Origin: a virus
Strand: one strand, 5' to 3'
Length of the DNA: 64,000 bases
IMG/VR virus record: IMGVR_UViG_3300044695_006284
Coordinates: 1-64,000 of that record
Position 1 is the first letter of the stretch, and the number at the start of each line of letters is the position of its first letter. Both the position numbers and the translations under genes were made by a program. Below, in pieces: positions 2,546 through 53,300 of the stretch. The notes beneath the pieces are model-generated. The model was not told the DNA's origin and made no database searches. It saw only the letters and a program-made list of their open reading frames with translations.

Positions 2546-2565
2546 GAGTTCCGCCTTTCGTTTTG

Positions 2566-2587
2566 ATTATACCATTGACCACTGACA
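2566..2587 (-). promoter_or_regulatory. RecA-NDp/PafBC-type promoter
   Basis: TGTCAG-TGGTCAATGG-TATAAT. Confidence 0.8.
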
Positions 2588-2599
2588 TTTGTAAATGAA

Positions 2600-2630
2600 G
2601 GGGGACCTGCCTCCGAAGAGGAAGGTCCCC
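2600..2630 (-). terminator. UUCG-capped hairpin, probable terminator after the Lsr2-like gene
   Basis: GGGGACCT.CCTC-TTCG-GAGG.AGGTCCCC. Confidence 0.65.
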
Positions 2631-2641
2631 ACAGTTAGTTA

Positions 2642-2791
2642 TTACTTGACGTTCTTCTTGTCTGTGAAGACTACGCCTTCTTGTGCTGCCTTGCTGATAG
2701 CTCCTAGAGCTGCAGCTGAAAAGCGGCCACGCTTGCCCACAGAAATTCCCTGGGCCTTTAGGTATTCACGAGTTGTTGTTGGTGTTGACAT
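2642..2791 (-). CDS. 49-aa stand-alone Lsr2-like DNA-binding domain (absent from the ORF track)
   Basis: MSTPTTTREYLKAQGISVGKRGRFSAAALGAISKAAQEGVVFTDKKNVK; RE....G..V..RGR motif; GAAAGGA RBS. Confidence 0.75.
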   Translation of the reverse strand: MSTPTTTREYLKAQGISVGKRGRFSAAALGAISKAAQEGVVFTDKKNVK

Positions 2792-2837
2792 AGTTTGATC
2801 CTTTCTAGATCGAGTTGTTATATATATTATATCCGAA

Positions 2838-2895
2838 TTTCGGGGTTTTGTAAATAGGGTCGTAAAGCAATATTTTTGCCCGTGTCCCTTAGCTT
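2838..2895 (+). repeat. tripartite element copy 3 (variant TTTCGG)
   Basis: TTTCGG-N17-CGTAA-N13-CCC. Confidence 0.65.
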
Positions 2896-2939
2896 AATGA
2901 CCGTTATGTCCGAATTGTCCATAACGGCCAAAGCTATCT

Positions 2940-3122
2940 TTATTCAGTTGTTAGTTCTTCTACTTGGTATGGCTCTATCTTATCCTTTTTAGCAGCAGCC
3001 TTTACCCATTCCTTTTTTGGGCTTGATACTGCCTTATACCATGCGTCATCGCTATCATCTGCAGTTACTACAATGTAGTAATCCTGAATGATATCTCCAT
3101 AGACTTTATATTGTTTGCTCAT
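2940..3122 (-). CDS. hypothetical early protein
   Basis: ORF in an overlapping operon. Confidence 0.7.
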   Translation of the reverse strand: MSKQYKVYGDIIQDYYIVVTADDSDDAWYKAVSSPKKEWVKAAAKKDKIEPYQVEELTTE

Positions 3123-3256
3123 AGTCCTACCTGCTCTATCTTATCTTTAATTAATTTAGCAATGATGTTGTGCGCCTCGATGTTTTCTGTTTCGGACCCA
3201 CCCCATAGCAAGGCCTGGGCCTTACTAAGTTGATCGTTTAGATACTCATCACTCAT
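3119..3256 (-). CDS. 45-aa hypothetical protein (MSDEYLNDQ...)
   Basis: Fills the gap and overlaps both neighbours. Confidence 0.6.
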   Translation of the reverse strand: MSDEYLNDQLSKAQALLWGGSETENIEAHNIIAKLIKDKIEQVGL

Positions 3257-3563
3257 CTTCATCTTCGTCCTCCTCCTCTTCATCTTCAGGGTCTACGATG
3301 TAGTCCCTGTTTAACATCCATTCTAAAACTTCTTCTTGGTGCTGTTCTGCTCCCCATTCCAAGGAGAACCCCATACCAGCCTCCACGGCCTCACACAGGT
3401 GGTTCCACATGTCTTCTTGGGTTGCCTTGGCAACATAGGTGTCATCCTCTAGAATGCCATTGATTGTCGACCATGTCCACAACCAAACTAATGATAGACC
3501 TAAGTCAGTGCTGTCTAGAATCTCTAGACATTTGTTTAGTTTATCTTTATCTTCAGGCTTCAT
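3249..3563 (-). CDS. hypothetical protein with acidic tail
   Basis: ORF in operon. Confidence 0.75.
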   Translation of the reverse strand: MKPEDKDKLNKCLEILDSTDLGLSLVWLWTWSTINGILEDDTYVAKATQEDMWNHLCEAVEAGMGFSLEWGAEQHQEEVLEWMLNRDYIVDPEDEEEEDEDEDE

Positions 3564-3843
3564 TTGCTACACCAAAATCTGTTCTCTCTTGAATTGCAAA
3601 TGAGAGTTGATATGTTAATCGGTACAGGTCAACCAGCATGTCTAATCGTCCTTCACACTCTGTACGGACCATAGAGTCCATTGCTTCCTCTGATAGTTCT
3701 TCTTGCTCTAAAGCGCTTGTTAGGTCTTGCTCAGCAATAAGCATTAGATTCTTTAGTTCTCCGTGCAAGATATCAAGACCTGATACTCCTGCATTGACCA
3801 TGCGTTGCAAATGGGGCGGGAGCCCAATGTCTTCTTCATTCAT
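3553..3843 (-). CDS. hypothetical early protein
   Basis: ORF in operon. Confidence 0.75.
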   Translation of the reverse strand: MNEEDIGLPPHLQRMVNAGVSGLDILHGELKNLMLIAEQDLTSALEQEELSEEAMDSMVRTECEGRLDMLVDLYRLTYQLSFAIQERTDFGVANEA

Positions 3844-4046
3844 TAGATTACCTCATAGTTCACTAGTGTTGATTCATTTAAGTTGTTTGCCCAATCAGGC
3901 TTTCCTTCTACCCAATCATATTCAATATCGATATCTCCTCCGCCTTCGGCAGGAGCACCAATTTTTATTACCAATTCTGTCCCGTCCTCAAAAAAGATTT
4001 GTTCGACGGCGGAACGATAAGTAACTTCTCTAGATGATATATTCAT
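3843..4046 (-). CDS. hypothetical early protein
   Basis: AACGAAAGG RBS. Confidence 0.75.
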   Translation of the reverse strand: MNISSREVTYRSAVEQIFFEDGTELVIKIGAPAEGGGDIDIEYDWVEGKPDWANNLNESTLVNYEVI

Positions 4047-4234
4047 TATTCATACCTTTCGTTAGTAGAGTTCATTATATCAGTTGCCACTGACAATAAA
4101 TGCCTGGTTGCATAAATCTGTCCCTCAATATCTACTACATGTAAAGACATAGGATTTTCTTCTAGGTCTTGTTCTAAACTAATTAGATGTAATTTAATAT
4201 ACTCTAAGAATGCAGATGACTTAGTCATTATCAA
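4046..4234 (-). CDS. hypothetical early protein
   Basis: ORF; its 3' end contains the next promoter. Confidence 0.65.
   Translation of the reverse strand: MIMTKSSAFLEYIKLHLISLEQDLEENPMSLHVVDIEGQIYATRHLLSVATDIMNSTNERYE
4074..4095 (-). promoter_or_regulatory. RecA-NDp/PafBC-type promoter (inside CDS)
   Basis: TGTCAG-TGGCAACTGA-TATAAT. Confidence 0.75.
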
Positions 4235-4403
4235 AATATCCTTCTGCCCATAGCCCCTGGAGGAAGTCCTGTGCCTTTAGTAGCCCGTCCACAATTGGAT
4301 CTTCATCAACACGAACGATATCTGATTTAAGAATATAGAAAAGCTTGGCGTCATGCATAGCATTTCCCATTTCATCTATATCTGTTTTAGTATATCCTAG
4401 CAT
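4221..4403 (-). CDS. hypothetical early protein
   Basis: GGAGG RBS. Confidence 0.7.
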   Translation of the reverse strand: MLGYTKTDIDEMGNAMHDAKLFYILKSDIVRVDEDPIVDGLLKAQDFLQGLWAEGYFDND

Positions 4404-4543
4404 TCAATTGCCTCCATATATTTAAGCATAGTGTTGAGTGTTATGTGAATATAACAATCACAATCATCTGATGTATCTCTGTCATCAAAATGGATTAAGT
4501 TGTCATCATAGATATAATCAATTAGTTCTTGGCTGGTAATCAT
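4397..4543 (-). CDS. 48-aa hypothetical protein (MITSQELID...)
   Basis: Fills the gap with overlaps. Confidence 0.55.
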   Translation of the reverse strand: MITSQELIDYIYDDNLIHFDDRDTSDDCDCYIHITLNTMLKYMEAIEC

Positions 4544-4752
4544 AAGCAATACTCATCTCCTTCGATATATCCATAATATTCATTGTATGATTGCTTTAAG
4601 TTATCAGGAGCAAATTGCATAAATCTCCATTCAGCATATGCTTCCCCTTCATCTAAATTAGATTGATTCCAATCTTCAAATAATGCTTGCTCAATATCTA
4701 CTTGAATTGCTCCAAGGATATGTTCTCCTACTGTATCTGTAAATGCTTCCAT
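4540..4752 (-). CDS. hypothetical acidic protein
   Basis: GAAAGGCGG RBS. Confidence 0.7.
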   Translation of the reverse strand: MEAFTDTVGEHILGAIQVDIEQALFEDWNQSNLDEGEAYAEWRFMQFAPDNLKQSYNEYYGYIEGDEYCL

Positions 4753-5486
4753 TATGCTTCCGCCTTTCTATATTCGGGTACTTTAGTGTCTAAGTATATC
4801 TTATGGGTCTGACAAATTGCTACAGCCTCTAGGTCAGCATTGCCTAGCCAGTTGCAGTTGCCACAGATTTCACCGCAGTCATTGTCGCAGTATTCCATTT
4901 GGTCGGTTGCATCACAATCACGGCACATGTTATCGTATTCTGATTCTGATATAACTTCTCCACGGAGGAATTCCATTTCCCCACCCCAACCTGTTTCTTC
5001 TTCGTATGATAAAGTAAATAGTAGATTAGGATACTGTGCAGATAGTTTAGAGATAGCGCCAAGAGGTCGTGACCATGCAGTGTTAAAGTTGTAATGAACT
5101 ACATAGTTCTCGCCATTTTCTGCTTCTTCAATAGTTGTATCAGGATACTTATTATCCTCGGCTACAGCAACATCCCACTTGGTTCCCCACTCACGCACAT
5201 TAAAGTTGTACCAGTCATTGGTTTCAAACTTCATTGCCTGAGAAAAGTCGGTGGAACGAGGAGGCTGTCCATGATATTCCTCATCAGTAATACCAGCATC
5301 TCTATAGTTATAGATATTATGAAAAGCAAAGATAGGATTAACATACTTAGTCTGCTTGACATCATATGATAAATCACCTAATGCAGTAATAGAATAAACA
5401 AATGGCTTATTCATCTGCTTGATTAAAGATTTAACTTGCTCAGGATTACCTTCAATAGTTAATCCATTAAATACCCAATTTGGCAT
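4752..5486 (-). CDS. YubB/DUF1281-like ferredoxin-like domain protein with C-terminal Cys cluster
   Basis: Start reassigned to MPNWVFN; WY.FN...WGTKW and FNTAWS.P motifs. Confidence 0.75.
   Translation of the reverse strand: MPNWVFNGLTIEGNPEQVKSLIKQMNKPFVYSITALGDLSYDVKQTKYVNPIFAFHNIYNYRDAGITDEEYHGQPPRSTDFSQAMKFETNDWYNFNVREWGTKWDVAVAEDNKYPDTTIEEAENGENYVVHYNFNTAWSRPLGAISKLSAQYPNLLFTLSYEEETGWGGEMEFLRGEVISESEYDNMCRDCDATDQMEYCDNDCGEICGNCNWLGNADLEAVAICQTHKIYLDTKVPEYRKAEA
4793..4814 (-). promoter_or_regulatory. RecA-NDp/PafBC-type promoter (inside CDS)
   Basis: TGTCAG-ACCCATAAGA-TATACT. Confidence 0.7.
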
Positions 5487-5513
5487 TTTATATCCTTTCG
5501 TTGATATGTTCCA

Positions 5514-5535
5514 ATTATACAATGGACCACTGACA
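5514..5535 (-). promoter_or_regulatory. RecA-NDp/PafBC-type promoter
   Basis: TGTCAG-TGGTCCATTG-TATAAT. Confidence 0.8.
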
Positions 5536-5601
5536 AATGGAATAGAATTGGCATGTGATACATGCCACATGATTCAGCTTTGTGGTCAACATCACAGCAA
5601 A

Positions 5602-5661
5602 TTCCAGGGAATATAATTGACAGTCGTAAAGACAATATGCTACCCTCATGTCTTTGAGGGC
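5602..5661 (+). repeat. tripartite element copy 4
   Basis: TTCCAG-N17-CGTAA-N13-CCCTC...GAGGGC. Confidence 0.8.
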
Positions 5662-5690
5662 AAAGAAAAACCCCCAGCTTAACTGGGGGT
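5662..5690 (-). terminator. Rho-independent terminator
   Basis: CCCCCAG-TTAAG-CTGGGGG-TTTTTCTTT. Confidence 0.8.
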
Positions 5691-5809
5691 CTTGAATAAT
5701 GGCTGCCTGGATTTCCAACGAAAGAAATAAACCCGCTTTACTTAGCGCCTGGCCCGAAGACTGATAGACGCACCATTATATTTCCTATTAAAACCAGGAC
5801 CTTAGTCCT
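5662..5809 (-). ncRNA. candidate ~145-nt structured sRNA with anti-leader loop
   Basis: Extended -10 TGGTATAAT (5816-5824); several stems; intrinsic terminator at 5662-5690. Confidence 0.5.
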
Positions 5810-5816
5810 AGTCTAA

Positions 5817-6182
5817 TTATACCATAACTAGTCGACTGTATTTGTCTACGAATGATGCTAAGGATGAACTAAATACAACTGTTTTTAGGTCTTCCTCGTA
5901 TAGCGTAAATGTTTGGTTTGTCCAATCAATTACAGGGACCTTGTGTTCGTTGTCTCCCAATTGGTTGACATAGATACCCCACGATAATGTTTGGTTCCAG
6001 TCTTCTCCAATTAGATGTGATATAGCAATGCGTGTTGCATATGACTCATCCTGCCAACGGGACTCCGCTGCCTGCACTGCATTTGCTAGTTTGGCTAGCA
6101 TGTCATACCCAGCCCAGTGTCCATATAGAAATACTACATTTTCCTTGGAATCTCTGAATCCAAAGTTTGCTCTGTCGCCCAT
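5817..6182 (-). CDS. hypothetical phage protein (MGDRAN...LYGHWAG)
   Basis: ORF with GGCGG RBS. Confidence 0.8.
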   Translation of the reverse strand: MGDRANFGFRDSKENVVFLYGHWAGYDMLAKLANAVQAAESRWQDESYATRIAISHLIGEDWNQTLSWGIYVNQLGDNEHKVPVIDWTNQTFTLYEEDLKTVVFSSSLASFVDKYSRLVMV

Positions 6183-6184
6183 TT

Positions 6185-6385
6185 TTATTCCGCCGTTTCT
6201 AAAGTAGGTATTGCTAGTTCTATCTTGTCTAATTCTATCACTTCATAGGCTACCTTGTCTAGGCCTGCCTTGTTTTTATTGTAGTGGTGACCGCAAAAAG
6301 CTAACTCACCATCTACTAGTTTAACTAGATACATTGCATCTGCTGATCCACATGCATCACATGGAATGAACTCTCTGTCTCTCAT
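6185..6385 (-). CDS. small Zn-binding protein (CDAC...FCGHH)
   Basis: Cys/His motif. Confidence 0.75.
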   Translation of the reverse strand: MRDREFIPCDACGSADAMYLVKLVDGELAFCGHHYNKNKAGLDKVAYEVIELDKIELAIPTLETAE

Positions 6386-6528
6386 AGAGCACCGCCCTCA
6401 ATCATCTCAGAAAGACGGTCAAGAATCCAAGAATCAATATCGTTGATATCAATTTCTGATAACTTCTCCATTATTTCTTCACGGGCAAACTTATACCCGT
6501 CATCCCAGCCATCCTTATAGTCTGACAT
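6382..6528 (-). CDS. 48-aa hypothetical protein (MSDYKDGWDDGY...)
   Basis: AGGAG RBS; ATGA overlap with next gene. Confidence 0.65.
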   Translation of the reverse strand: MSDYKDGWDDGYKFAREEIMEKLSEIDINDIDSWILDRLSEMIEGGAL

Positions 6529-6537
6529 AATCTCTCC

Positions 6538-6741
6538 TTAATAACCTGTGGTTTCGTAGTCTGATACATAAGATTCAGTTAAGTTATACTTATCTCTAAG
6601 TCTACTTACTTTCTCAATACTACCAGTTCCAATGTTGAATGTCAATGCAGACATTGCTTGTGGGTCAAGTCCTGTTATTTGTGCATCCCAATAGGCCATC
6701 TCCATGGATAGCCTATCAGGAGCGGTAAGTTCAAAGTACAT
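6538..6741 (-). CDS. hypothetical early protein
   Basis: ORF. Confidence 0.7.
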   Translation of the reverse strand: MYFELTAPDRLSMEMAYWDAQITGLDPQAMSALTFNIGTGSIEKVSRLRDKYNLTESYVSDYETTGY

Positions 6742-7358
6742 TAGCCCTCGATTCTATCTACAGATGATGATAGCCAACTAATACCGTCTGAGTCATAAGA
6801 AACAGTGTCAAAATCAATATCATGAATTAGATTGTGTGCAGACTCTTCATCACGAGCATTAACTGTAATTGAATATAGAACTGTTACTTCTAGTTCAAAC
6901 TCATTTGTTAGTTCAAATCCACAGATGCCAGCAATTTCTTCTGCTTGAAATTCTGTAAGAGATTCGTCATCAAGGCCTTCGAGTGTGAATACCTTCATGT
7001 CATCACGCAATTTGCTTAGAGTTCCTGCAGTTGCATAATCACGCTGAGTTATACGCTGGATGTGCTCTTCTAACTGTGTAATGCGGGCTTTGTTATCTAC
7101 TAACTGTGACTCAAGAAATTCCCGTGTCAAGTAGTGATTATCTGTTGTTGTTTCCATTTTATCCTCTTTCGTTGTTGTTGGTGTAATTGTAGCATGCTCC
7201 ACTGACAATAATGTGGTCTTGCGTCCGCATGGGCATGTGAGTTCTGTCACACCTGAAGGAAAGCCAAATCCATCAGATGATGTTAGTTCTATTAATGAAT
7301 CGCATTCATCTGGGTCACAGACAAATGTATACTTGCTTGATACTAGTTCGTTGGTCAT
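6741..7358 (-). CDS. Zn-ribbon plus coiled-coil protein with an internal in-frame start at 7157
   Basis: Leaderless ATG7358; internal promoter and RBS precede ATG7157. Confidence 0.7.
   Translation of the reverse strand: MTNELVSSKYTFVCDPDECDSLIELTSSDGFGFPSGVTELTCPCGRKTTLLSVEHATITPTTTKEDKMETTTDNHYLTREFLESQLVDNKARITQLEEHIQRITQRDYATAGTLSKLRDDMKVFTLEGLDDESLTEFQAEEIAGICGFELTNEFELEVTVLYSITVNARDEESAHNLIHDIDFDTVSYDSDGISWLSSSVDRIEG
7186..7207 (-). promoter_or_regulatory. RecA-NDp/PafBC-type promoter (inside CDS)
   Basis: TGTCAG-TGGAGCATGC-TACAAT. Confidence 0.75.
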
Positions 7359-7365
7359 AAAGAGA

Positions 7366-7387
7366 ATTGTACCAGGTCCCACTGACA
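7366..7387 (-). promoter_or_regulatory. RecA-NDp/PafBC-type promoter
   Basis: TGTCAG-TGGGACCTGG-TACAAT. Confidence 0.8.
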
Positions 7388-7398
7388 TTATCAAGGAT

Positions 7399-7456
7399 TT
7401 CCAGGGGATATTTATGTGAGTCGTAACACACTTTTTGCCCCCTTAGCTTTGAGGGC
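7399..7456 (+). repeat. tripartite element copy 5
   Basis: TTCCAG-N17-CGTAA-N13-CCCTTAGCTTTGAGGGC. Confidence 0.8.
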
Positions 7457-7459
7457 GCT

Positions 7460-7536
7460 TGGCGATCCATAACGGACTTGAACCGTCGACCTCTACCGTG
7501 ACAGGGTAGCGCTCTAACCAACTGAGCTAATGGACC
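7460..7536 (-). tRNA. tRNA-Asp(GTC)
   Basis: Cloverleaf; CTACC-CT GTC AC-GGTAG anticodon arm; GTTCAAG T-loop; encoded CCA. Confidence 0.95.
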
Positions 7537-7549
7537 TGGAAAAAATTGT

Positions 7550-7576
7550 GAGCAGTTTTTATTCATGCTCAGGAAT
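7550..7576 (-). ncRNA. 27-nt H-type pseudoknot copy A
   Basis: ATTC-CTGAGCAT-GAAT-AAAAAC-TGCTC. Confidence 0.6.
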
Positions 7577-7584
7577 TTATTTAT

Positions 7585-8592
7585 TTAGAACGCAGAAATT
7601 AATTTCTTAATTTTATTTTTTTCTGCGGTTAGAATTGGGTCAAACCCTGATGCACCCGCCATGAGTGTTTCAGAATTTCCACGACCTGAACGATAGTAAT
7701 CAAGGCGTTCAGTAAGTGCATTGAATGCACCCCACTTTGTTCCCTTGATGTTAGCGTTAGTTGGTGAATTGTGATACAACTCGTCAAGCAACACGACTTT
7801 GTTTTCCCACTTAGTCAATGCAACTTTAGCAGCATCCTTATCAGGCTTAGGATAAATTGTCTGAATTAACTTTGAGAATTCAGCATCAGTGATTGATTGA
7901 GAATAAAGAGCCTGAGCCTCTTTCTCGAATTCATCAAAGTACCCAAGAGCAAGCCCAAGAGTTTCACGAGCAACTTGGATGCGACCTTCAACAGATTGCG
8001 TGTGGCGAATCTTGAAAGATTGCTTAGCATTCTTCATTGCAAGGTTAAGAGTGTTTTGGCATACAACACGAACAGGAGTAACAGCAGCCTGAACAGCAAC
8101 TGACCCGTCGTGAGATGTCCAAACAATTAGATACAACTTAGTTGCATCATTTGCGCCTTGTGGGTCAAGCACCATTGTGCGAGGAATATCCACTGTACCG
8201 AATACAACCTTACCGCTACGAAGTGAGCCAGCAGATTCCCAACGGCAATCTGCATTCGCATCGTGAATTGCATCTGCGAATGCAAATAGTTCCTCATTCT
8301 GCACAGGCTTGTAACGCTTTCCAACAGTTGCAAGAACATCAGTTCCATTGTTGAATGGGTTGTCACGAATAACTAATTGAGCATTAGATACATCATTCCA
8401 TGTATCTGAAATATGGTCAGTTAGTGGAGACAAGCGAACATTCCAGTTGGAAAGTTTTGCCTCATCTAACATCATTTGAGTTGTAACATCTTCATCTTGT
8501 GTAAAGATGCGATTTGCAAGGTTGTGCCATGCAGGTGCGCCACGAAGTGCGAATGCAACTTCGCCATTTTCCATTTCTAGATTATGAGCCAT
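7585..8592 (-). CDS. DUF932 (phage/plasmid LGT_TIGR03299-like) protein
   Basis: MAH...AWH.L, Y.PVQN, SHDGS, TPVRVVCQNTL, GT.WGAFNA.TE..D motifs. Confidence 0.9.
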   Translation of the reverse strand: MAHNLEMENGEVAFALRGAPAWHNLANRIFTQDEDVTTQMMLDEAKLSNWNVRLSPLTDHISDTWNDVSNAQLVIRDNPFNNGTDVLATVGKRYKPVQNEELFAFADAIHDANADCRWESAGSLRSGKVVFGTVDIPRTMVLDPQGANDATKLYLIVWTSHDGSVAVQAAVTPVRVVCQNTLNLAMKNAKQSFKIRHTQSVEGRIQVARETLGLALGYFDEFEKEAQALYSQSITDAEFSKLIQTIYPKPDKDAAKVALTKWENKVVLLDELYHNSPTNANIKGTKWGAFNALTERLDYYRSGRGNSETLMAGASGFDPILTAEKNKIKKLISAF

Positions 8593-8623
8593 TTTTTACC
8601 TTTCGTTTGTTTGATTAGTTGTA

Positions 8624-8645
8624 AGTATAACAGACCCCACTGACA
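8624..8645 (-). promoter_or_regulatory. RecA-NDp/PafBC-type promoter
   Basis: TGTCAG-TGGGGTCTGT-TATACT. Confidence 0.8.
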
Positions 8646-8702
8646 TTGTCTAGGATTAATTACAATATGTCCGAATTGATCCATGTGATTAATCTCACAA
8701 AA

Positions 8703-8760
8703 TTCCAGGGTTATCCACAAGTGGTCGTAACCCTGTGGATAACCCCTTAGCTTTGCGGGC
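8703..8760 (+). repeat. tripartite element copy 6 with two DnaA boxes
   Basis: TTATCCACA at 8711, TGTGGATAA at 8734. Confidence 0.85.
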
Positions 8761-8789
8761 CAGCTGCATATGCAGCTGGTGTTAGATCT

Positions 8790-9044
8790 TTACAGACCTA
8801 ACTCATCCCTAGTTAATTGGTTTTTGCGATTGAAGTTAATAACTTCGGACGGGAGGTAAAGAGCAGTTGTCTTAGTCTTCTTCAATGTATCATAGACATA
8901 AGCACGAACATCCCCTAAAAAGTTTCCTCTATTAGAGAATGCTAACTCAGTTAAATAATCTTTATCTACACCTTGTTCTGAATAGATTGTTACATCATTT
9001 GCTTTGTTTGCATCATAGATTTCTACTCTGAAACGATTTTTCAT
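8790..9044 (-). CDS. hypothetical early protein
   Basis: AAAGG RBS. Confidence 0.75.
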   Translation of the reverse strand: MKNRFRVEIYDANKANDVTIYSEQGVDKDYLTELAFSNRGNFLGDVRAYVYDTLKKTKTTALYLPSEVINFNRKNQLTRDELGL

Positions 9045-9079
9045 TTTGTTGCCTTTGTTAGTAGTTGTCCCAAAAGGGA

Positions 9080-9106
9080 GAGCAGTTTGGCGACATACTC
9101 AGGTCG
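9080..9106 (-). ncRNA. 27-nt H-type pseudoknot copy B
   Basis: CGAC-CTGAGTAT-GTCG-CCAAAC-TGCTC; stem covaries with copy A. Confidence 0.6.
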
Positions 9107-9115
9107 TTGGATTAT

Positions 9116-9538
9116 TTACAGATAACGAGCAATAGCATTGTAAGTGCTTGTGCTTACTGTTTCCTCATCTGTCATCTTTAGAATACGAATTGCGTTTTCC
9201 AATTCCTCTTTCATCTCATTGTATGAGTGGCGGTGGAGAACTTCGTAGTCCTTCTCAGGCTCTTTAGGAAAGTCTGACTCATTAACTGTTAAATCGAAAT
9301 CAACATTGAGTGTCTTATTCCATGAGCGATAGTTTGTGCGGAAGTTTTCTGCCTTAGCAAAATTAGCCATAGCGAACTTTCCTACTTCTTTGCGCCACTT
9401 CTCCATAGCCTTTTCATGCTTTGCTTCGTTGGCTTCTTGTGATGCGTAATCGGCATTTAACTTTGTCAAGCGAGTTTCTAGTGCCTTGATTACCTTTGGT
9501 GTTGCGATTTTTACGCTAATTGCTTTCTGTCGTGCCAT
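9116..9538 (-). CDS. hypothetical coiled-coil early protein
   Basis: Strong RBS and upstream promoter. Confidence 0.85.
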   Translation of the reverse strand: MARQKAISVKIATPKVIKALETRLTKLNADYASQEANEAKHEKAMEKWRKEVGKFAMANFAKAENFRTNYRSWNKTLNVDFDLTVNESDFPKEPEKDYEVLHRHSYNEMKEELENAIRILKMTDEETVSTSTYNAIARYL

Positions 9539-9577
9539 TTGTTTCCTTCTTTCGTTGTGAGTTGGGTTGATGAAGTA

Positions 9578-9599
9578 ATTATAGCAGGGGGGTCTGACA
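9578..9599 (-). promoter_or_regulatory. RecA-NDp/PafBC-type promoter
   Basis: TGTCAG-ACCCCCCTGC-TATAAT. Confidence 0.8.
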
Positions 9600-9624
9600 T
9601 TTCTGCGACCCCCCTCCCATTAAA

Positions 9625-9807
9625 TTAAACGCCTAGTAGTGTTTGAGCGGATACGGAAGTCCAACGAGTTTCCTTGTTGGGCATTTCCAATAGCACACGC
9701 ACCGAGCCAGATGTTTGTGGGTGGATTTCTTTAATCACACCTGTTTTCTTTGACTTGAGGGTAGTGAATAAATCGCCTACCTGATACAACTTGTCGTTGA
9801 TTGTCAT
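9625..9807 (-). CDS. small SH3/KOW-like protein
   Basis: YQVGD....K..TGVIKEI pattern. Confidence 0.65.
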   Translation of the reverse strand: MTINDKLYQVGDLFTTLKSKKTGVIKEIHPQTSGSVRVLLEMPNKETRWTSVSAQTLLGV

Positions 9808-9837
9808 TTATTGCCTCTTTTCTTTGTTAGGTTGGTA

Positions 9838-9859
9838 ATTATAGCATTGGGGTCTGACA
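9838..9859 (-). promoter_or_regulatory. RecA-NDp/PafBC-type promoter
   Basis: TGTCAG-ACCCCAATGC-TATAAT. Confidence 0.8.
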
Positions 9860-9908
9860 TTAGTCTAGCCCTGTCTCAGTATTTGAGAAAGTTATTGTGT
9901 GACCTTAG

Positions 9909-10169
9909 TCACTCAGGTAGCCAAGCGTGTAAGTGGTGAGCCTCGATGATCGCCCACACTGGCGCACATGTCTCACCTTTGTAAGTAATCCCATCAGGCA
10001 TTTCGATAGTTTCATCCCACATGTCATCATGAGCAAAATCTATTGCTTCGATACATACTGGCACCATAGAAAGTGGAACGGGTGGGTAATGATTACCCTG
10101 TAAGTGATAGCCTAGTGCTACTTCTAAATCTAATTCTTCAGATAAATCTAATGCTGTATTGTATCCCAT
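9909..10169 (-). CDS. hypothetical protein (HL.GNHYPPVP motif)
   Basis: ORF with AAGGTGG RBS. Confidence 0.8.
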   Translation of the reverse strand: MGYNTALDLSEELDLEVALGYHLQGNHYPPVPLSMVPVCIEAIDFAHDDMWDETIEMPDGITYKGETCAPVWAIIEAHHLHAWLPE

Positions 10170-10372
10170 TATTCTGCCACCTTTAGTATTGCGTAAGAGC
10201 CATTAGCATTTATTTCATCAAGAATTGGTTGTAGGCGTGGTGCTACTAAATCTTTTAGCATAGACTCTAGCATAAAGATACGAGTATCCTCATCAAGTGC
10301 CATAACCTGTTGAGTTACTGGATGATTGTCTGCAAACTCTGTTACAAACTTTAGATTGTGTTCTACTATCAT
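10169..10372 (-). CDS. hypothetical early protein
   Basis: AACGAAAGG RBS. Confidence 0.75.
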   Translation of the reverse strand: MIVEHNLKFVTEFADNHPVTQQVMALDEDTRIFMLESMLKDLVAPRLQPILDEINANGSYAILKVAE

Positions 10373-10403
10373 TTTTATTGCCTTTCGTTGTTGGTATAAG
10401 AGT

Positions 10404-10425
10404 ATTATACACTAGGGCACTGACA
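10404..10425 (-). promoter_or_regulatory. RecA-NDp/PafBC-type promoter
   Basis: TGTCAG-TGCCCTAGTG-TATAAT. Confidence 0.8.
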
Positions 10426-10480
10426 AATTGTGCAACACGCCCAAGCTTTATCTTATTTATTTTGTGATTAATCTCACAAA

Positions 10481-10539
10481 TTCCAGGGGGTTGTGGATAA
10501 GTCCCGTAAGCCTGTGGATAACCCCGCAGTATTGCGGGC
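10481..10539 (+). repeat. tripartite element copy 7 (N18) with two DnaA boxes
   Basis: TGTGGATAA at 10492 and 10513; CCCGCA-GTAT-TGCGGG hairpin. Confidence 0.85.
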
Positions 10540-10554
10540 CTGCATAGCTATGCA

Positions 10555-10686
10555 TTACTCTGCATATTTATTTTTATGTTTGATCTTTCGAAAATATTTT
10601 TTCTTATTACGAACAGGTTGCGCCGCATTACTGCGGCGCAATTCCTGAATTCGTTTTACTTTATCTCGAAGTGAATTTTGGGACAT
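10555..10686 (-). CDS. 43-aa highly basic protein
   Basis: MSQNSLRDKVKRIQELRRSNAAQPVRNKKKYFRKIKHKNKYAE. Confidence 0.55.
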   Translation of the reverse strand: MSQNSLRDKVKRIQELRRSNAAQPVRNKKKYFRKIKHKNKYAE

Positions 10687-10852
10687 GATACCCACTCGCT
10701 TCGTGAAATCGTTTTACATCAAATCGGTCATTATCTTTTGCGAACATCTCCGCAAAGTCATTAACCATTTTAGAAAATAACGCTGGGTGCGCTTTATCGC
10801 TTGCGAACTTTAGAATTTCTGCAACCGCGACATAATCTTTTCGTGTCATCAT
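10661..10852 (-). CDS. hypothetical protein (MTRKDY...DN.RFD..RF)
   Basis: ORF. Confidence 0.75.
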   Translation of the reverse strand: MMTRKDYVAVAEILKFASDKAHPALFSKMVNDFAEMFAKDNDRFDVKRFHEASGYHVPKFTSR

Positions 10853-11052
10853 TTTACTGCCACCATTCCACTACGATAGAAAACTTTTGTATAGCATTTG
10901 CCTGTTGGCGTGTAAATATTTACAGTTGAGTATTCGTTAGCAAAACCCCAATCGGTGAATAAGAAAAAGTTTTCCCACGCACCAAATTCGCTTTCGTATT
11001 CTGCTGACCAATGAGGAGCGTGTCCGTCATAAGCACAAGTTAATTTATACAT
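10849..11052 (-). CDS. hypothetical early protein
   Basis: ORF. Confidence 0.7.
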   Translation of the reverse strand: MYKLTCAYDGHAPHWSAEYESEFGAWENFFLFTDWGFANEYSTVNIYTPTGKCYTKVFYRSGMVAVK

Positions 11053-11195
11053 TAGTCATTTTCTCCGTTCCAAAATAGTGAGCCGTCATCTACGCAATCG
11101 CAAGGTTCGCAATCAAAATCATTATCATCACCAAAAAAGATTACTCCGTGTCCGTGGCAATCTTGGCAATCTATTGTTAATACTGAGTTAATCAT
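11052..11195 (-). CDS. 47-aa Cys-rich protein (CQDCHGHG...CEPCDC)
   Basis: TAATG overlaps on both sides. Confidence 0.6.
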   Translation of the reverse strand: MINSVLTIDCQDCHGHGVIFFGDDNDFDCEPCDCVDDGSLFWNGEND

Positions 11196-11359
11196 TAGTG
11201 TTGTTCCTCGCAATCTTTGTCATAGTCAAATCCGCAAAAGTAGCAACCCATAAATTCTAGGTGTTCGATACAGTAATACTTAAATTGACTTTCATCACAA
11301 CAAAAATGTTGCTCGTCTGCGATTTCATAGAAATCGGTTTTGTCGATTATGTTTAACAT
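11195..11359 (-). CDS. 54-aa Cys-rich protein
   Basis: AACGAAAGGA RBS. Confidence 0.65.
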   Translation of the reverse strand: MLNIIDKTDFYEIADEQHFCCDESQFKYYCIEHLEFMGCYFCGFDYDKDCEEQH

Positions 11360-11387
11360 AGTTTTCCTTTCGTTTGTTTATTTAGTT

Positions 11388-11409
11388 ATTGTATCAGTTA
11401 GCACTGACA
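11388..11409 (-). promoter_or_regulatory. RecA-NDp/PafBC-type promoter
   Basis: TGTCAG-TGCTAACTGA-TACAAT. Confidence 0.8.
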
Positions 11410-11480
11410 AATTTTGTGAGGGTTCTTACTTACGACATTGGGCGAGGACTCCCTCTAAACTGCCCCTGTTTCGATTTTAT

Positions 11481-11693
11481 TTAATCGGAAGTTTTTACGG
11501 CTAAATAGCGATAAGTATCTTTTAGATTTAGCGGTGCAGAATAAATTGGGCGTACCTGCACTTTGTAAGTATCTGCATTTGCATACCAGACACTATCATT
11601 TTTTTCTGCTGAAATAATTTCTCCAGTAAGAGAATTTGAGCGATACATTTTTCCTACAAGTAGGCTTTCGATAGTATAGACATTTGCTGACAT
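11481..11693 (-). CDS. hypothetical early protein (MSANVY...)
   Basis: Start reassigned using the CGAAAGGCGG RBS. Confidence 0.75.
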   Translation of the reverse strand: MSANVYTIESLLVGKMYRSNSLTGEIISAEKNDSVWYANADTYKVQVRPIYSAPLNLKDTYRYLAVKTSD

Positions 11694-11725
11694 TTGAGTC
11701 CGCCTTTCGTTTGTTGATAGTAGCA

Positions 11726-11747
11726 ATTATAGCGGATAGCACTGACA
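11726..11747 (-). promoter_or_regulatory. RecA-NDp/PafBC-type promoter
   Basis: TGTCAG-TGCTATCCGC-TATAAT. Confidence 0.8.
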
Positions 11748-11833
11748 AAAGATAATTACTAGCCAGTAATTCCAAATAATGAGACGCTCAAGCCGTGTGA
11801 TAAAAATCACAAAATCTCGGGCGTGTCGGAAAA

Positions 11834-11891
11834 TTCCAGGGGTTGTGGATAACCCCCGTAACCCTGTGGATAACCCCGCTCTTTTGCGGGC
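11834..11891 (+). repeat. tripartite element copy 8 with two DnaA boxes
   Basis: TGTGGATAA at 11844 and 11865; CCCGC-TCTTTT-GCGGG hairpin. Confidence 0.85.
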
Positions 11892-11924
11892 GCATCAGCT
11901 TTTGTCAAGCCGACACGCCTCTGC

Positions 11925-12724
11925 TTATTCGAAATCCTTAAAAATTTCTTCAAGCTTTAAGATTTGCTCATCTGTAAGATGATCAATTTCAATTGCTTTT
12001 TCAAATCCAAAAAAATCCATTATTCATTTTCCATTTCTGCTAAATAATCTTCATGTTCAATTAAGCCGACTGAAAAAGCGATTGGGTCGCAACATTCCAA
12101 AATTTCGGCGGGAGTAAAAGTAGAGTAACCAATTTTTACAGTAGGGTAACAGTCATTTAGTAAATCAATAAAGCTTTCCTTGATTTCTAAATCTTTTTCA
12201 AATTGTGTTTTCATTCGCTTAACTCCAAATCTCTTATGTCGGCAACATAAACATTATTTTTATCTATTCCGTATTTTAATTGAAATTGAAATGTATCAAT
12301 AGCCTCATCATAGGATTCAGCCTCGACATTTATAAAAGCATTAAACTCATAAACTGGCATGATTACCAACACTCCTCACAAGTAAATTTAGTAAAGTCTG
12401 CATCTTTTGCAAAAATCTCTAAATAGTTATTCGCACAAATTGTGCATGATAGCAAATAAGTTTTTGCCTTTTGATACATGTATGGATTAGAGTTAGATAA
12501 TTCTCTATTCTCTAAAACCTCTGATGAAATTAAAATACTCATTTAGTTAAACTCCAATCGGTGTAAAATGGTAAGCGGTCATAGTCATCATAGAAATAAA
12601 CTCTATCTATGTTCTGCTCGCATGTTTCGCAGAAAGTGTATTCGACATCTACGCCCATGCCATAGGTAGTAGATACGCTCTCCATGTGTGGAGTGTGTGT
12701 ATGTGTATTTGTTAGTGTAGTCAT
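11925..12724 (-). CDS. operon of five small hypothetical genes (12724-12539, 12542-12363, 12360-12211, 12214-12020, 12020-11925)
   Basis: Abutting or overlapping ORFs; several have CxxC motifs. Confidence 0.6.
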
Positions 12725-12756
12725 TTGAGACCACCTTTCTTTTTCGTTATGGTAGT

Positions 12757-12778
12757 ATTTTACCACGGGGGTCTGACA
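12757..12778 (-). promoter_or_regulatory. RecA-NDp/PafBC-type promoter
   Basis: TGTCAG-ACCCCCGTGG-TAAAAT. Confidence 0.8.
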
Positions 12779-12847
12779 TTTATCTACCTACTAGCCAGTA
12801 ATTCCAAGATGTGAGACGCTCAGCCTATGTGATAATTATCACATAAA

Positions 12848-12905
12848 TTCTGGGGTTTTCCACAGATGCCCGTAACCCTGTGGATAACCCCGCTCTTTTG
12901 CGGGC
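12848..12905 (+). repeat. tripartite element copy 9 (TTCTGG) with DnaA boxes
   Basis: TTTTCCACA at 12856 (one mismatch), TGTGGATAA at 12879. Confidence 0.8.
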
Positions 12906-13058
12906 CAGCTCGACATTGTCAAGCCGACACGCCGTTAGGCTAGTGTGACTCTTGCCACATCTCTCGCATCTCTGCCTTAAAGTCATGCCATACGATCCTC
13001 GCCATGTATAGGGCGGGTAGGGCAAGGGATAACTGCACTAGTGTAGTAAGTAGTCTAT

Positions 13059-13524
13059 TCATGCGGTCACCTTGATGTCCATTACATTAGCGGTAAACTT
13101 TTTAACCTTGCCTAATTCGCTATCGTTGAGCGATTGTATTACATGGTCAATAGCCTTAGCCTCATGCGCTACATTGTCAATAGAGATTAGTTTAGAGCCT
13201 TGCCAAATTGAGTAAGTGATAGTCATTATTAGTTCTCCCATGTTAGTTGGTATAGTTTTGCTAGTTCTTCATCATCTGAGTCATCAAATTCATCTAGTGG
13301 AGGTTGTTCCTCATCTACCTCATCGAGGTATGCGTATGCGTCTGCGACATCTGATTGGATAGTGTCCCACTTAGACACGCTGTTAGTTTCGTATGAGTAT
13401 GCGTATGACATTATTTATTCATCTCCTCTGCGATAGCCTTAGACTTAGTTAGTGCCTCTAGGGCTACTGATAGGGAGGCAAGGCGTTGAGCCTCTACCAT
13501 TTGCTTGTATTCATCTAGTGTCAT
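13059..13524 (-). CDS. three small hypothetical genes (13524-13411, 13411-13229, 13226-13059)
   Basis: Coupled ORFs, each with an RBS. Confidence 0.65.
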
Positions 13525-13555
13525 TATTCTGACCTTTCGTTGTTGTTATGTTGTA

Positions 13556-13577
13556 AGTGTAGCATGGGGGTCTGACA
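13556..13577 (-). promoter_or_regulatory. RecA-NDp/PafBC-type promoter
   Basis: TGTCAG-ACCCCCATGC-TACACT. Confidence 0.8.
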
Positions 13578-13616
13578 AATTGGGGAGGTTAGCCTAGTGT
13601 GTCGGTGTGAGGTGTG

Positions 13617-13787
13617 TCACCTTCCTCGCTTAACTCGAATAGCCTCGGCTTGCGCTAACTGCTCAGGTGTAGCGTTGCGGAAAGCCTGTACGCTCTCCCT
13701 TATCCAAGGTGACTTAGCCATAGCCTTTTCGTGAGCGATAGCGTTGCGCTCTTGTTGTTCTTTTCTAATTCGTTCTAGTGTATTCAT
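13617..13787 (-). CDS. first gene of the leftward block, hypothetical
   Basis: Start reassigned to MNTLER using the AACGAAAGG RBS. Confidence 0.7.
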   Translation of the reverse strand: MNTLERIRKEQQERNAIAHEKAMAKSPWIRESVQAFRNATPEQLAQAEAIRVKRGR

Positions 13788-13822
13788 TAGATGATTACCT
13801 TTCGTTTTGTTGTTATACCTTA

Positions 13823-13844
13823 AGCATAGCATGGGGGACTGACA
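13823..13844 (-). promoter_or_regulatory. RecA-NDp/PafBC-type promoter
   Basis: TGTCAG-TCCCCCATGC-TATGCT. Confidence 0.8.
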
Positions 13845-14505: not shown

Positions 14506-14580
14506 GGGCCTATAGCTTAATCTGGTTAAAGCAATTGTCTTATATGCAATCGACTTTGGGTTCAAATCCCAATAGGCCTA
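14506..14580 (+). tRNA. tRNA-Ile(TAT)
   Basis: GGGCCTA/TAGGCCT acceptor stem; ATTGT-CT TAT AT-GCAAT anticodon arm; GGTTCAAATCC; no encoded CCA. Confidence 0.85.
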
Positions 14581-50040: not shown

Positions 50041-50375
50041 ATTTAGCCGCTTTAGAAGGACAAGTTTTTCTTCTGGGTCACTGGAAGAATTACGAGGAAT
50101 TAGAAGAAAATTTATCAATGCCAGAATTGGTTCAAACCATAACAGCGATAAATGAAAAAGAGCATAACCAAAGAAAATTTGCAGCGTCACTAAAAGGAAT
50201 ACAATTAGATGATGGTGCAGAAGAAAAAGAAAAAGGTTCTACCTTTGAAGATATCCAAAGAAGAGCACTTGGAATAAATGCATCAGCAGATGATGTTGTT
50301 GGTTTACAAGGGCCCTTTGCAGCGAAAGCTGGATTTGGAATTGGCGCAGGGTTAGGATACTCTAGGAGTAATTAG
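49708..50375 (+). CDS. tail assembly chaperone G-T via -1 frameshift at C CCA AAC (49998-50004)
   Basis: In-phase XXXYYYZ heptamer; the -1 frame is open to 50375. Confidence 0.75.
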
Positions 50376-53300
50376 TGGCTGACGAACAAATTGTAACCAG
50401 TATAGTCGCCAAAGCCGACTTATCTAGCCTTGTGTCTGAAGTACACAGGGCTAGTTCTAGTCTCCAACAATTACAAAGAGAACTTCTTGCATCGAATAGA
50501 GCAATATCTGCTTCAACAAAATTAGCAAATAACTTATTTAGAGATACACTAACTGGAAGCGGACAGTTTTCTAGTCACTTTGTAAACCTTAATTCGGATG
50601 TAGATAAGTTTGGTAAAAACCTAGACTCTGGAAGATTAAAGCTTAAGAACTATTTCCAGACATTTAGAGAGCATGCTACAACTCAAAAGGGAATGATAAG
50701 GGAGCTTGCCAAAGAGCAGGTAATGCTTCAAAACTCAGTGCTACAACCTTTAGGTAGAAATGCTCAAGGCCTAATGCAGTACAACGTTATGATTCCAAGA
50801 GGTTTGGATGCCGTAAAAAATAGCGCACAACTAGCTCGCATGGAACTTCAGATAATGAATCGTGCACTATCTGAAGGAGCAGGATCTTTAATTAACTGGG
50901 GTAAAAATACTCAGTGGGCAGGTCGTCAGCTTACAGTTGGACTTACAGTTCCATTAACAATGTTTGGTGCTGCAGCAGGAAAAGCATTTAGAGAAGCAGA
51001 TCAAGAGCTTGTAAGACTTACAAAGGTTTACGGTGGACTAGCTGCAACTTCTGCAGCAGACTTAAAAGCAATTAGAGAAGAAGTTGTGCAAACAGCAAAA
51101 TCTTTATCTCAAACAATGGGAGCTTCTTTTAAAGATACAATTGCGCTAGGTGCTGATATTGCGGCAACTGGAAAGATGGGCAACGAACTTTTAGGTTCTA
51201 TAGAAGAAACAACCAGACTTGCAATCCTTGGAGAAGTAGATAGACAAGATGCAATGAAAGCTACTCTTTCAATTCAAACAGCTTTTAAGCAAAACACACA
51301 GCAACTTACAGAATCAATTAACTTTCTTAACGCAGTTGAAAACCAGACATCTACAACACTTAACGATTTAGTAGAAGCAATTCCAAAAGCTGGTCCAGTT
51401 ATACAGCAACTCGGAGGCAGCATAGAAGACTTAGCTCTTTATATGACTGCAATGAGAGAAGGTGGAATTAATGCATCTGAAGGTGCAAACGCATTAAAGT
51501 CAGGTCTAGCTTCTTTAATTAATCCAACAAAACAAACAGTCGGTATAATGTCAGATTTTGGCATAGATGTAATGGGAATGGTTGCAAAAAATACTGGTGA
51601 TACAACTGGAATGTTGCTAGATTTGCAAAAAGCTTTAAACACTTTAGATCCTCTAAGTAAAGCTAGAGCACTTGAGCAAATGTTTGGTAAGTTCCAGTTT
51701 GCAAGAATGAGCGCACTCCTAAACAACCTTGGAAAAGAAGGAAGCCAGACGCTTCAGGTTATGGATTTAATGAAGGCAAGTACCTCAGATTTGGCGGGAA
51801 TTGCAGAGCGAGAATTAGGAATGATTACAGAGTCTGCATCTGGTAAGTATAGAAGAGCTATGGAGTCTTTAAAAGCACAGCTTGCAGATGTAGGAGATGA
51901 GTTTCTTGGGGTTGCAACTAAACTTATAAATGCTGCGTCAAAGATTTTAGAATTCTTCACTAATTTGCCATCACCGATTAAAAAAGCTCTTACTTTTATG
52001 GCAGGATTTACAGCATTAGTTGGCCCACTAATTATGTTAACTGGTGTACTTGCCAACTTCTTTGGTTATATAACAAAGGGAATAGTCCAGCTCAGATCTT
52101 TCTTTATGAAAGCAAATGGATGGAAGATGCTTACTCCAGAAATTATTGCTGCTCAAAAAGCAGCAGAAATGGTTGAGAATGCATTTTATTCAGATGCCGC
52201 TGCAGCTCAAGTTCTTCATAATGCATTACAAAAACTTGTTTTAGATTATCAAAACCTTCAAGCAGCATCAATGAAGAACGCAGTTCCAGTAAACGCAGGA
52301 GTCTCTACAGTTGCTGGAAATACAATTGTTGCTCCTGCTCATGGAAGAAGAGTTGTAGATCCTGATGATCCATACGTTGGAGATCCTAATACTAGAGCAA
52401 TGTCTCACATTAGACCGAGAGATCCAAATAATCCAGCCACCTTGTTTGGTGGTGTGCCAGGAGCTATACCAGTAAACAGGGGAATATCTAGAACTCCTCA
52501 AATTTATATGCATGATAGACTTCCAAATGTTGAAGGCCTAACAAGTGTAAAGGGAATATCTACAGGAATTGTTGCACCAGAGGCCGCTAAGTTTCATGCG
52601 CTCATGGCCACACTTGGAATGCAAACAGAACAGGAAATTGCAGCACTAAAGAAAACTATTGCAATGGGTGGAACAGTAAGTAGAGAGCTTTTAGATACAT
52701 TCGACGACATTCTTCCAATAACTCAAAGATTTGCAGATAGCGCAGCAACTCAATCTGCACTAATTGTTCAGCAAATGAGAAATGCAGAAATAACTGTTGA
52801 TCAGGCAAAGGCAAGAATACTTGCGCTTAATGCACAAATAGAAGCAGACATGGGATCAGCAGTAAGTATGTATGCTGCTGGACGAGGAAGAACAATTGAT
52901 TTAACAAGAGCTCCAATGATGGATCAACCAGTTGTTGATGCTAATGGACAGTTTACACTTAGAGATTTGTATAAGAAAAAGACAAATGCTGCCGTCATGG
53001 AAGAGTTTGGAAGAGTCCGTGGTGTAAGAACATTTGGCGCACCTTACAGTATTCAAACAACAAGAATGCCTAAATTTAATATAGGTGGAGAGGTTGAATC
53101 ATTTGGTCCAAACAAAACAGTGGTTTCAGGACCATCTTCAGTAAACTATGATGATAGATTGGGAAGTGTTCCACTAGGTGGATATGTTTTGAACCAGCAA
53201 GCTGCAATGGATCCAGCAAATGCCCCATTAGTTGCAATGGCTCCAAGCACATATTTAAATGACGGTGGAAATATTACAGCAGCTCTTACTCCACGGGAAG

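Follow-up and report, generated by a model that had tools for sequence, protein, structure and literature searches.

The stretch of DNA analyzed here (hereafter, the window) spans the first 64 kb of the IMG/VR viral record IMGVR_UViG_3300044695_006284, which is 98 kb long; the G+C content of the window is ~ 39%. Its portal, protease, and capsid genes show a distant likeness to those of Streptomyces phages, and relatives of the capsid protease were found only at < 60%, in Streptomyces and Rhodococcus phages. On the plus strand, 3′ of the capsid genes, a 3778-codon ORF (50375-61711) presumably encodes a giant tape-measure-like protein. A close relative of the portal protein is encoded by > 600 IMG/VR contigs. 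The phage group to which the window belongs is very abundant in lake metagenomes, and its complete members G007 and G019 are about 110-116 kb long with direct terminal repeats. Isolated Planktophila phages are 39 kb long and unrelated. The 98-kb record contains no WhiB gene (PF02467), which was sought as a host marker; we infer that the hosts of this freshwater group are probably Actinobacteria. A blastn search with positions 5400-6200 against a deposited phage collection returned no match.

The locus of interest lies on the minus strand, where an extended -10 promoter, TGGTATAAT, overlaps the stop codon of an upstream ORF (6182-5817) and is followed by a 12-codon ORF and an intrinsic terminator (Table 1), as had been predicted from the sequence of this phage alone. 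The AGGAC/GTCCT stem, the UUCG hairpin, and the GGGUUU/AAAUCC stem with its loop at 5728-5715 are likewise all present as predicted. No TGTCAG box, of the kind described below for the early promoters, is found 5′ of this promoter; AGTCGA stands in its place. The TGnTATAAT form of the promoter is kept in distant family members too. In the small RNA, a 5′ hairpin and then a variable single strand lead into a three-way junction of P2, P3 (with an apical hairpin), and P4; the RNA folds at -51.3 kcal/mol (z = -3.65), and none of 200 shuffled sequences folds equally well. The outer stem of the original prediction is supported in its AUAAUGG/CCAUUAU part but not in its TGC/GCA extension, since compensatory G-C to A-U changes in P3 place G5771 and C5770 in the P3 helix GCGUCU/AGGCGC. 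A simple terminator scan did not list the hairpin at 5690-5662 and listed the next one, at 5663-5640, instead, so that the terminator call rests on the fold and the alignments. That next hairpin, GCCCUCA-AAGACA-UGAGGGU (5640-5663, minus strand), is also conserved and comes directly after the terminator of the RNA; within the ~ 30 nt past it lies a conserved AGCAUAUUGUCUUUACGACUGUCA.

Table 1. Features of the small RNA and of the early leaders in the window, with coordinates, strand, and basis of each assignment
Feature	Position	Strand	Basis
Extended -10 promoter TGGTATAAT of the small RNA	5824-5816	-	sequence; invariant in 48 unique relatives
Small RNA, ~ 146 nt (start placed 6-8 nt past the -10, end set in the U-run)	5662-5811	-	fold z = -3.65; covariance model R1, 125 bits
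P1 5′ hairpin AGGAC-UAAG-GUCCU (AGGAC 5809-5805, GUCCU 5800-5796)	5796-5809	-	alignment
P2 5′ strand AUAAUGG, pairs with 5696-5702	5773-5779	-	stem kept in relatives
12-codon ORF, AUG inside the P2 5′ strand	5776-5738	-	sequence
P3 GCGUCU/AGGCGC around hairpin GUC-UUCG-GGC (5761-5752)	5745-5771	-	compensatory changes
Junction UAAGUAAA, family consensus UAARUAAR, unpaired, conserved	5737-5744	-	family alignment
P4 hairpin GGGUUU (5734-5729) / AAAUCC (5714-5709)	5709-5734	-	stem rewritten, loop core kept
P4 14-nt loop AUUUCUUUCGUUGG	5728-5715	-	sequence
Invariant P4 loop core CUUUCGUU	5724-5717	-	53 of 55 unique family members
P2 3′ strand CCAUUAU, conserved AGCAGCC-type junction just before	5696-5702	-	alignment
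Intrinsic terminator ACCCCCAG-UUAAG-CUGGGGGU, then U-run	5690-5662	-	fold; stem covaries in relatives
Leader tag AACGAAAGG behind TGTCAG-type promoter	13798-13806	-	sequence
Leader tag AACGAAAGG	13533-13541	-	sequence
Leader tag AACGAAAGG	11703-11711	-	sequence
Leader tag AACGAAAGG	11366-11374	-	sequence
Leader tag AACGAAAGG	10381-10389	-	sequence
Leader tag AACGAAAGA, best duplex with the loop, -15.4 kcal/mol	9548-9556	-	duplex energy
Leader tag AACGAAAGG, before DUF932 gene	8599-8607	-	sequence
Leader tag AACGAAAGA	7165-7173	-	sequence
Leader tag AACGAAAGG of the DUF1281_C / Api92-like gene just downstream of the RNA	5494-5502	-	sequence
Leader tag AACGAAAGG	4055-4063	-	sequence
Leader tag AACGAAAGG, 3 nt past the -10	2554-2562	-	sequence
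tRNA gene	7463-7536	-	Rfam tRNA, 68 bits
tRNA gene	14506-14580	+	Rfam tRNA, 69 bits

An exact 26-nt search found the P4 loop hairpin in 21 viral contigs, and two further conserved stretches used as queries raised the total to 87. In 48 unique copies, 95% of the alignment cells of the proposed helices pair, compared with 39-58% when the 3′ partners are slid, and P3 carries G-C to A-U double changes. A covariance model (R1) that scores 125 bits in the window scores 29-147 bits in 73 other loci, with weaker members turning up in further records from this phage group; among 80 related viral loci, fetched through the neighboring Api92-like gene, it matches 71. Across 55 unique sequences every helix has been rewritten by compensatory changes, which is the covariation in relatives that had been proposed as a check. 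P1 is paired in 99.6% of cells, its stem kept and its loop varying. P2 recurs as GUAAGG/CCUUAC and GUAGGG/CCCUAC, the stem being kept with other sequences and registers, and P3 as GCAUCU/AGGUGC, GCAUCU/AGAUGC, GCGGCU/AGUCGC, GCCCCU/AGGGGU, and GCAACU/AGUUGC. The P4 stem has at least six different sequences (e.g., GGUUU/AAAUC, AUCGG/CCGAU, AGAGU/ACUCU, AGGG/CCCU, and AGC/GCU), whereas the family keeps the sequence of the junction strands UAARUAAAGC and AGCAGCC.

The same alignment shows that the unit does not encode a conserved peptide. Indels of 1 and 2 nt in the loop of the P3 UUCG hairpin put the 12-codon ORF in three different frames in relatives, so that the ORF is not conserved and the RNA is non-coding; frame and length both change, and substitutions track base pairs rather than codons. 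As expected of an independently transcribed, trans-encoded sRNA, the TGnTATAAT promoter and a G+C-rich hairpin with a U-run are kept family-wide, with the exception of loci L211 and L213, which have no terminator. In Rfam 15, only the two tRNAs of the window reach the gathering threshold, and the small RNA falls in no family (C4, FasX, and NsiR1 included). The best hits at the RNA, FasX (23 bits vs 100 needed) and NsiR1 (23 vs 39), both align to the terminator only, and four distant members of the family gave nothing at E <= 0.1. These comparisons describe a non-coding RNA that is both structured and conserved, and whose own promoter and terminator are conserved along with it.

Traces of the RNA are present in RNA libraries. 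Six metatranscriptome runs match a small share of an 801-nt query, and we compared contigs from four of them. In a freshwater library (X16), a 115-nt contig matches positions 5683-5777 with zero mismatches and has adapter sequence at one end, and in another library (X19) a 166-nt contig carries a relative’s copy of the RNA. A third (X15) has a contig, from a relative, in which the upstream gene runs on into the 5′ part of the RNA; this may reflect read-through or DNA. Such contigs establish presence in RNA libraries only, as they carry no information on ends, strand, or level. Habitat labels (e.g., “marine” for X15), depth, and uncovered flanks were not counted as evidence. We take them as a weak hint that the RNA is expressed.

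The sequence that the P4 loop could read lies in front of early genes. AACGAAAGG occurs nine times against 0.31 expected, with every copy on the minus strand and within 2554-13806, and two copies of AACGAAAGA bring the number of leader tags in the window to 11, in agreement with the predicted leader before at least 11 early genes. The tags sit 6-10 nt 5′ of an ATG, behind promoters of the form TGTCAG-N10-TAnnnT, of which there are ~ 15 on the minus strand at 2566-13844. The TGTCAG box, 10 nt before the -10, is too close for a -35 role, and the form resembles PafBC/RecA-NDp promoters of Actinobacteria, a motif described in PMC6789036. Because anything from 3 to 27 nt separates the -10 from the tag, it is the start codon and not the promoter that the tag accompanies; the tag at 2554-2562, so near its -10, lies at the extreme 5′ end of that mRNA. 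With a crude gene call of the window, 10 of the 13 genes that come first after a TGTCAG-type promoter have the exact tag in front of them, as against 0 of 37 among the remaining early ORFs and 0 of 40 among the late genes; the untagged genes have ribosome sites of the GGAG type. The claim that the whole early regulon would be switched off was therefore overstated, as the tag marks only the first cistron behind TGTCAG-type promoters, or 10 of ~ 50 early ORFs. Among 334 unique leaders of relatives, the positions of AACGAAAG are 86-99% conserved, with conservation falling off on both sides. The tag could in part have been inherited with duplicated promoter-leader cassettes. At 7366-7387 (minus strand), a TGTCAG-type promoter is followed by AACGAAC with no start codon near; it may drive a non-coding or long-leader transcript. 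This arrangement is kept in G003 and G007, and AACGAAC is the commonest variant “leader” of the relatives (23 copies).

The loop core CUUUCGUU is the exact complement of this invariant leader core AACGAAAG, with the same boundaries. The predicted complementarity of loop and leader/RBS thus holds as an exact 8-mer, and also in energy: against 16 leaders the mean duplex is -10.8 kcal/mol, compared with -6.6 ± 0.86 kcal/mol for 2000 shuffled loops, none of which is as good. Promoter-proximal leaders average -11.4 kcal/mol and late genes -5.45 kcal/mol (Mann-Whitney p = 3e-7). By composition, the 8-mer is expected ~ 2.5 times in the window on both strands, and we put the chance of one falling in a given 14-nt loop at ~ 1e-4. 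Many coding sites in the genome, among them several purine-rich ones, reach duplex energies as low as those of the leaders, so energy alone does not single the leaders out. In the manner of the seed of a trans-encoded sRNA, CUUUCGUU is invariant and complementary to AACGAAAG in 11 leaders, above the shuffled controls.

Conservation of the loop had been named as a further check, and CUUUCGUU is kept in the P4 loop of 53 of the 55 unique members although the P4 stem is wholly replaced, with the other loops varying freely. Its flanks fall into three types, AUUU-core-GG (the type of the window), UUUA-core-GG, and UUCC-core-U/C/G. In the modeled ensemble the central UUCGUU is at least 85% unpaired. 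The energy model favors a P4 register in which only UUCGUU is open, and opening the full 14 nt costs ~ 2.8 kcal/mol; the register of the original prediction is favored by a G to A change in the GGAUUU of one member and by a paired deletion. RNAalifold proposes, for the subgroup of the window, that the 5′ single strand pairs with the P4 loop (AGGAAAU with AUUUCUU), a pairing that is 99% compatible and has zero double changes. Such pairing might hide the loop, in that subgroup at least. We rejected it as the cause of loop invariance, since conservation throughout the family holds for the loop core and not for the 5′ strand, so that an internal contact cannot explain the invariance. A second candidate contact, UAAGUAAA with UUUAYUU at the start of P4, was rejected by eye for A-C or C-C mismatches in many members.

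If the loop reads the tag in trans, phages without the loop are predicted to lack the tag as well, and the 80 related loci bear on this directly. The 71 loci with CUUUCGUU on the gene strand have a mean of 5 tags per 10 kb, and all 9 loci without it have 0-2 copies of AACGAAAG per 8-15 kb. In whole records, the early strand carries 3-4 copies in G016 and G017, near the control count, vs 9-14 in G007, G018, and G019. The nine loop-less loci still have TGTCAG promoters, with relaxed (A/C)AGAAAGG leaders in many variants, so a ribosome site can work without the CG of the tag. In the sequences compared, the CG of the tag is kept only where a loop that could read it exists. A quick tree of the neighboring gene puts the nine loci in 5 places, each beside tag-rich sisters; they share more DNA among themselves than with others, and the number of independent losses therefore lies between 1 and 5, perhaps being as low as one to three.

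What remains of the RNA differs among these loci. L211 (8808-8917) and L213, which correspond to G016 and G017, keep the scaffold with the P4 loop replaced by CUGGGGGUGUU; in L211 no terminator follows the scaffold, and an ORF begins ~ 20 nt later. We sought leaders complementary to CUGGGGGUGUU in G016 and found no shared target. In L230 (9102-9171) the P4 hairpin is shortened to GCGC-UUAG-GCGC, in L182 (9016-9105) a scaffold remnant lacks P4, and in L218, L219, L244, L245, and L252 no scaffold was found. Strong intergenic hairpins with the loop ACCUUUCUUU occur at L211:3230-3290 (G016, about 83290-83340) and L182:3845-3905, the latter being the terminator of a 55-codon early gene. ACCUUUCUUU is the complement of the AAAGAAAGG(U) leaders of these two phages, and the hairpins may, by this match, be replacement anti-leader RNAs, which we record as a lead. 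Sequence comparison further suggests that loop flanks and leader flanks shift together where the loop is present. Leaders of UUCC-type phages have G9 in 78%, A10 in 60%, and A11 in 62%, vs 57%, 33%, and 35% for the type of the window; in G005, for example, the leader is AACGAAAGGAA(A) and the loop UUCCUUUCGUU.

Taken at face value, these patterns point to an anti-leader sRNA that acts in trans and keeps ribosomes from binding to promoter-proximal early mRNAs, a reading that we consider fairly likely on the sequence evidence. The host polymerase would transcribe a stand-alone RNA of ~ 146 nt from the extended -10, ending at the intrinsic terminator. Its scaffold, the 5′ hairpin plus the three-way junction, would present the P4 loop and might also bind a helper protein. 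CUUUCGUU would then pair in trans with the AACGAAAG(G/A) tag, located 6-10 nt 5′ of the first gene’s start codon, in a duplex of 8-11 bp covering the GAAAGG ribosome-binding site. Covering this site would keep the 30S subunit off, and possibly also mark the mRNA for decay, so that translation of the first cistrons in about a dozen early units would drop together. The RNA would probably silence the tagged early genes as a set, and pairing with the loop would explain why the leader is so conserved. The sequences themselves show the structure and conservation of the RNA, its complementarity to the leaders, and the joint occurrence of loop and tag; we infer that there is a discrete RNA species, that it pairs in the cell, and that it represses at a particular time. 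The anti-leader reading of the original prediction is partly supported, by invariant loop and leader sequences that are exact complements and by loop-less phages that are also tag-less, as pairing in trans would predict; its whole-regulon scope goes too far.

The alternative that survives best, although we think it unlikely, is that the RNA is a structured scaffold with another main job, for example binding a protein of the phage or its host, or acting on some target in the host. In that case the loop would be kept for that partner or for a tertiary contact, and the leader match would be a by-product of a pyrimidine-rich, anti-Shine-Dalgarno-like loop. The scaffold does outlast the loop in three lineages and so may have another function. 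Members without the loop motif still keep the scaffold junctions UAARUAAAGC and AGCAGCC, remnants persist without P4, and the AGGAAAU strand offers the loop a partner of the kind described above in the subgroup of the window. However, that strand, unlike the loop core, is not kept family-wide, the match runs past the ribosome-site part into CGUU/AACG, and tag and loop motif are lost together.

Less probable still is a real pairing with an outcome other than repression, in which the RNA protects or activates leaders (e.g., by shielding the 5′ end from RNases) or confers immunity against superinfecting relatives rather than acting as a timer. RNA-based phage immunity is known from P4 (CI RNA). 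It also exists in P1/P7 (c4; PMC12197685). The position of the tag, within about 5-30 nt of the predicted mRNA 5′ end, likewise speaks for this reading. The duplex, however, would cover the GAAAGG site, and the leaders, which are rich in C and A, have no structure that pairing could open. For immunity, diverging specificities would give the opposite of what is seen, namely a loop and tag that are identical across very diverse relatives. Finally, a cis-acting leader (riboswitch or attenuator) of the Api92-like gene, which the RNA directly precedes in most loci, or a micropeptide gene, as the AUG after a purine-rich stretch might suggest, is largely refuted and very improbable: the terminator of the RNA and a separate TGTCAG-type promoter stand between it and that gene, its position varies (in at least 6 loci it lies 1-2 kb downstream of the gene), and the 12-codon ORF, with no conserved frame, is shifted by the 1-2 nt indels and begins at an AUG that is a paired P2 base, replaced by GUG or lost in relatives, the loss being seen in distant members.

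The anti-leader RNA proposed here has partial counterparts in several known systems. Multi-target bacterial sRNAs, including the Hfq-independent actinobacterial 6C, have their own promoter, an intrinsic terminator, and a conserved unpaired loop seed that pairs with the ribosome sites of several mRNAs. These sRNAs are host-encoded, have another sequence and fold, and rely on fortuitous matches, whereas the targets here would be the phage’s own genes, each with one engineered-looking tag. Early shut-off in phages is carried out by proteins such as T4 RegA and RegB, or by polymerase changes. The T4 RegB endoribonuclease and RegA repressor (PMC3014915) resemble the RNA as phage factors that act on many early ribosome sites and end early expression, as is proposed here. 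They are, however, proteins that recognize GGAG or AU-rich sites, whereas the RNA would read an 8-nt tag by pairing. Similar in mechanism is the c4 RNA of P1/P7 (PMC12197685; Rfam C4), a structured small phage RNA whose hairpin loops pair in trans with a ribosome-binding region and block translation, as is proposed for the present RNA. The c4 RNA has one target operon (icd-ant), is processed from the same transcript, sets immunity specificity, and belongs to enterobacterial phages. The present RNA differs from c4 in its fold, matches no Rfam family, comes with a promoter and a terminator of its own, and would act on about a dozen dispersed targets marked by a common tag. The start-associated sequences (SAS) of Cluster K mycobacteriophages (PMC3203893) are similar to the tag in being short conserved sequences before the start codons of a gene subset, overlapping the ribosome site, in actinobacterial phages. 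The two sequences are unrelated, and the tag has a candidate RNA partner. To our knowledge, no complementary RNA has been reported for the SAS, and we know of no reader. We conclude that the RNA represents a new family and, if the anti-leader reading is right, a new form of antisense control.

A broader account, which we put forward tentatively at somewhat under even chances, is that these ~ 110-kb freshwater phages, probably of Actinobacteria, use an 8-nt tag as an address label on the first gene behind each early promoter of the host-activator type (TGTCAG box), and that one dedicated small RNA, by reading the tag, switches off the whole set post-transcriptionally. Where a lineage changed the tag, the loop would have been replaced or dropped, and in some lineages new matching hairpins would have evolved. 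If this is true, a single RNA with which a phage reads the tag common to a dozen of its own transcription units would be a new and very economical form of lytic timing, and would supply the conserved start-associated sequences of actinobacterial phages with their first function. As the hosts are thought to lack Hfq, the scaffold may show how such RNAs work without it. The family is plentiful in lake metagenomes, has clear covariation, and comes with a testable prediction of compensatory changes in loop and leader.
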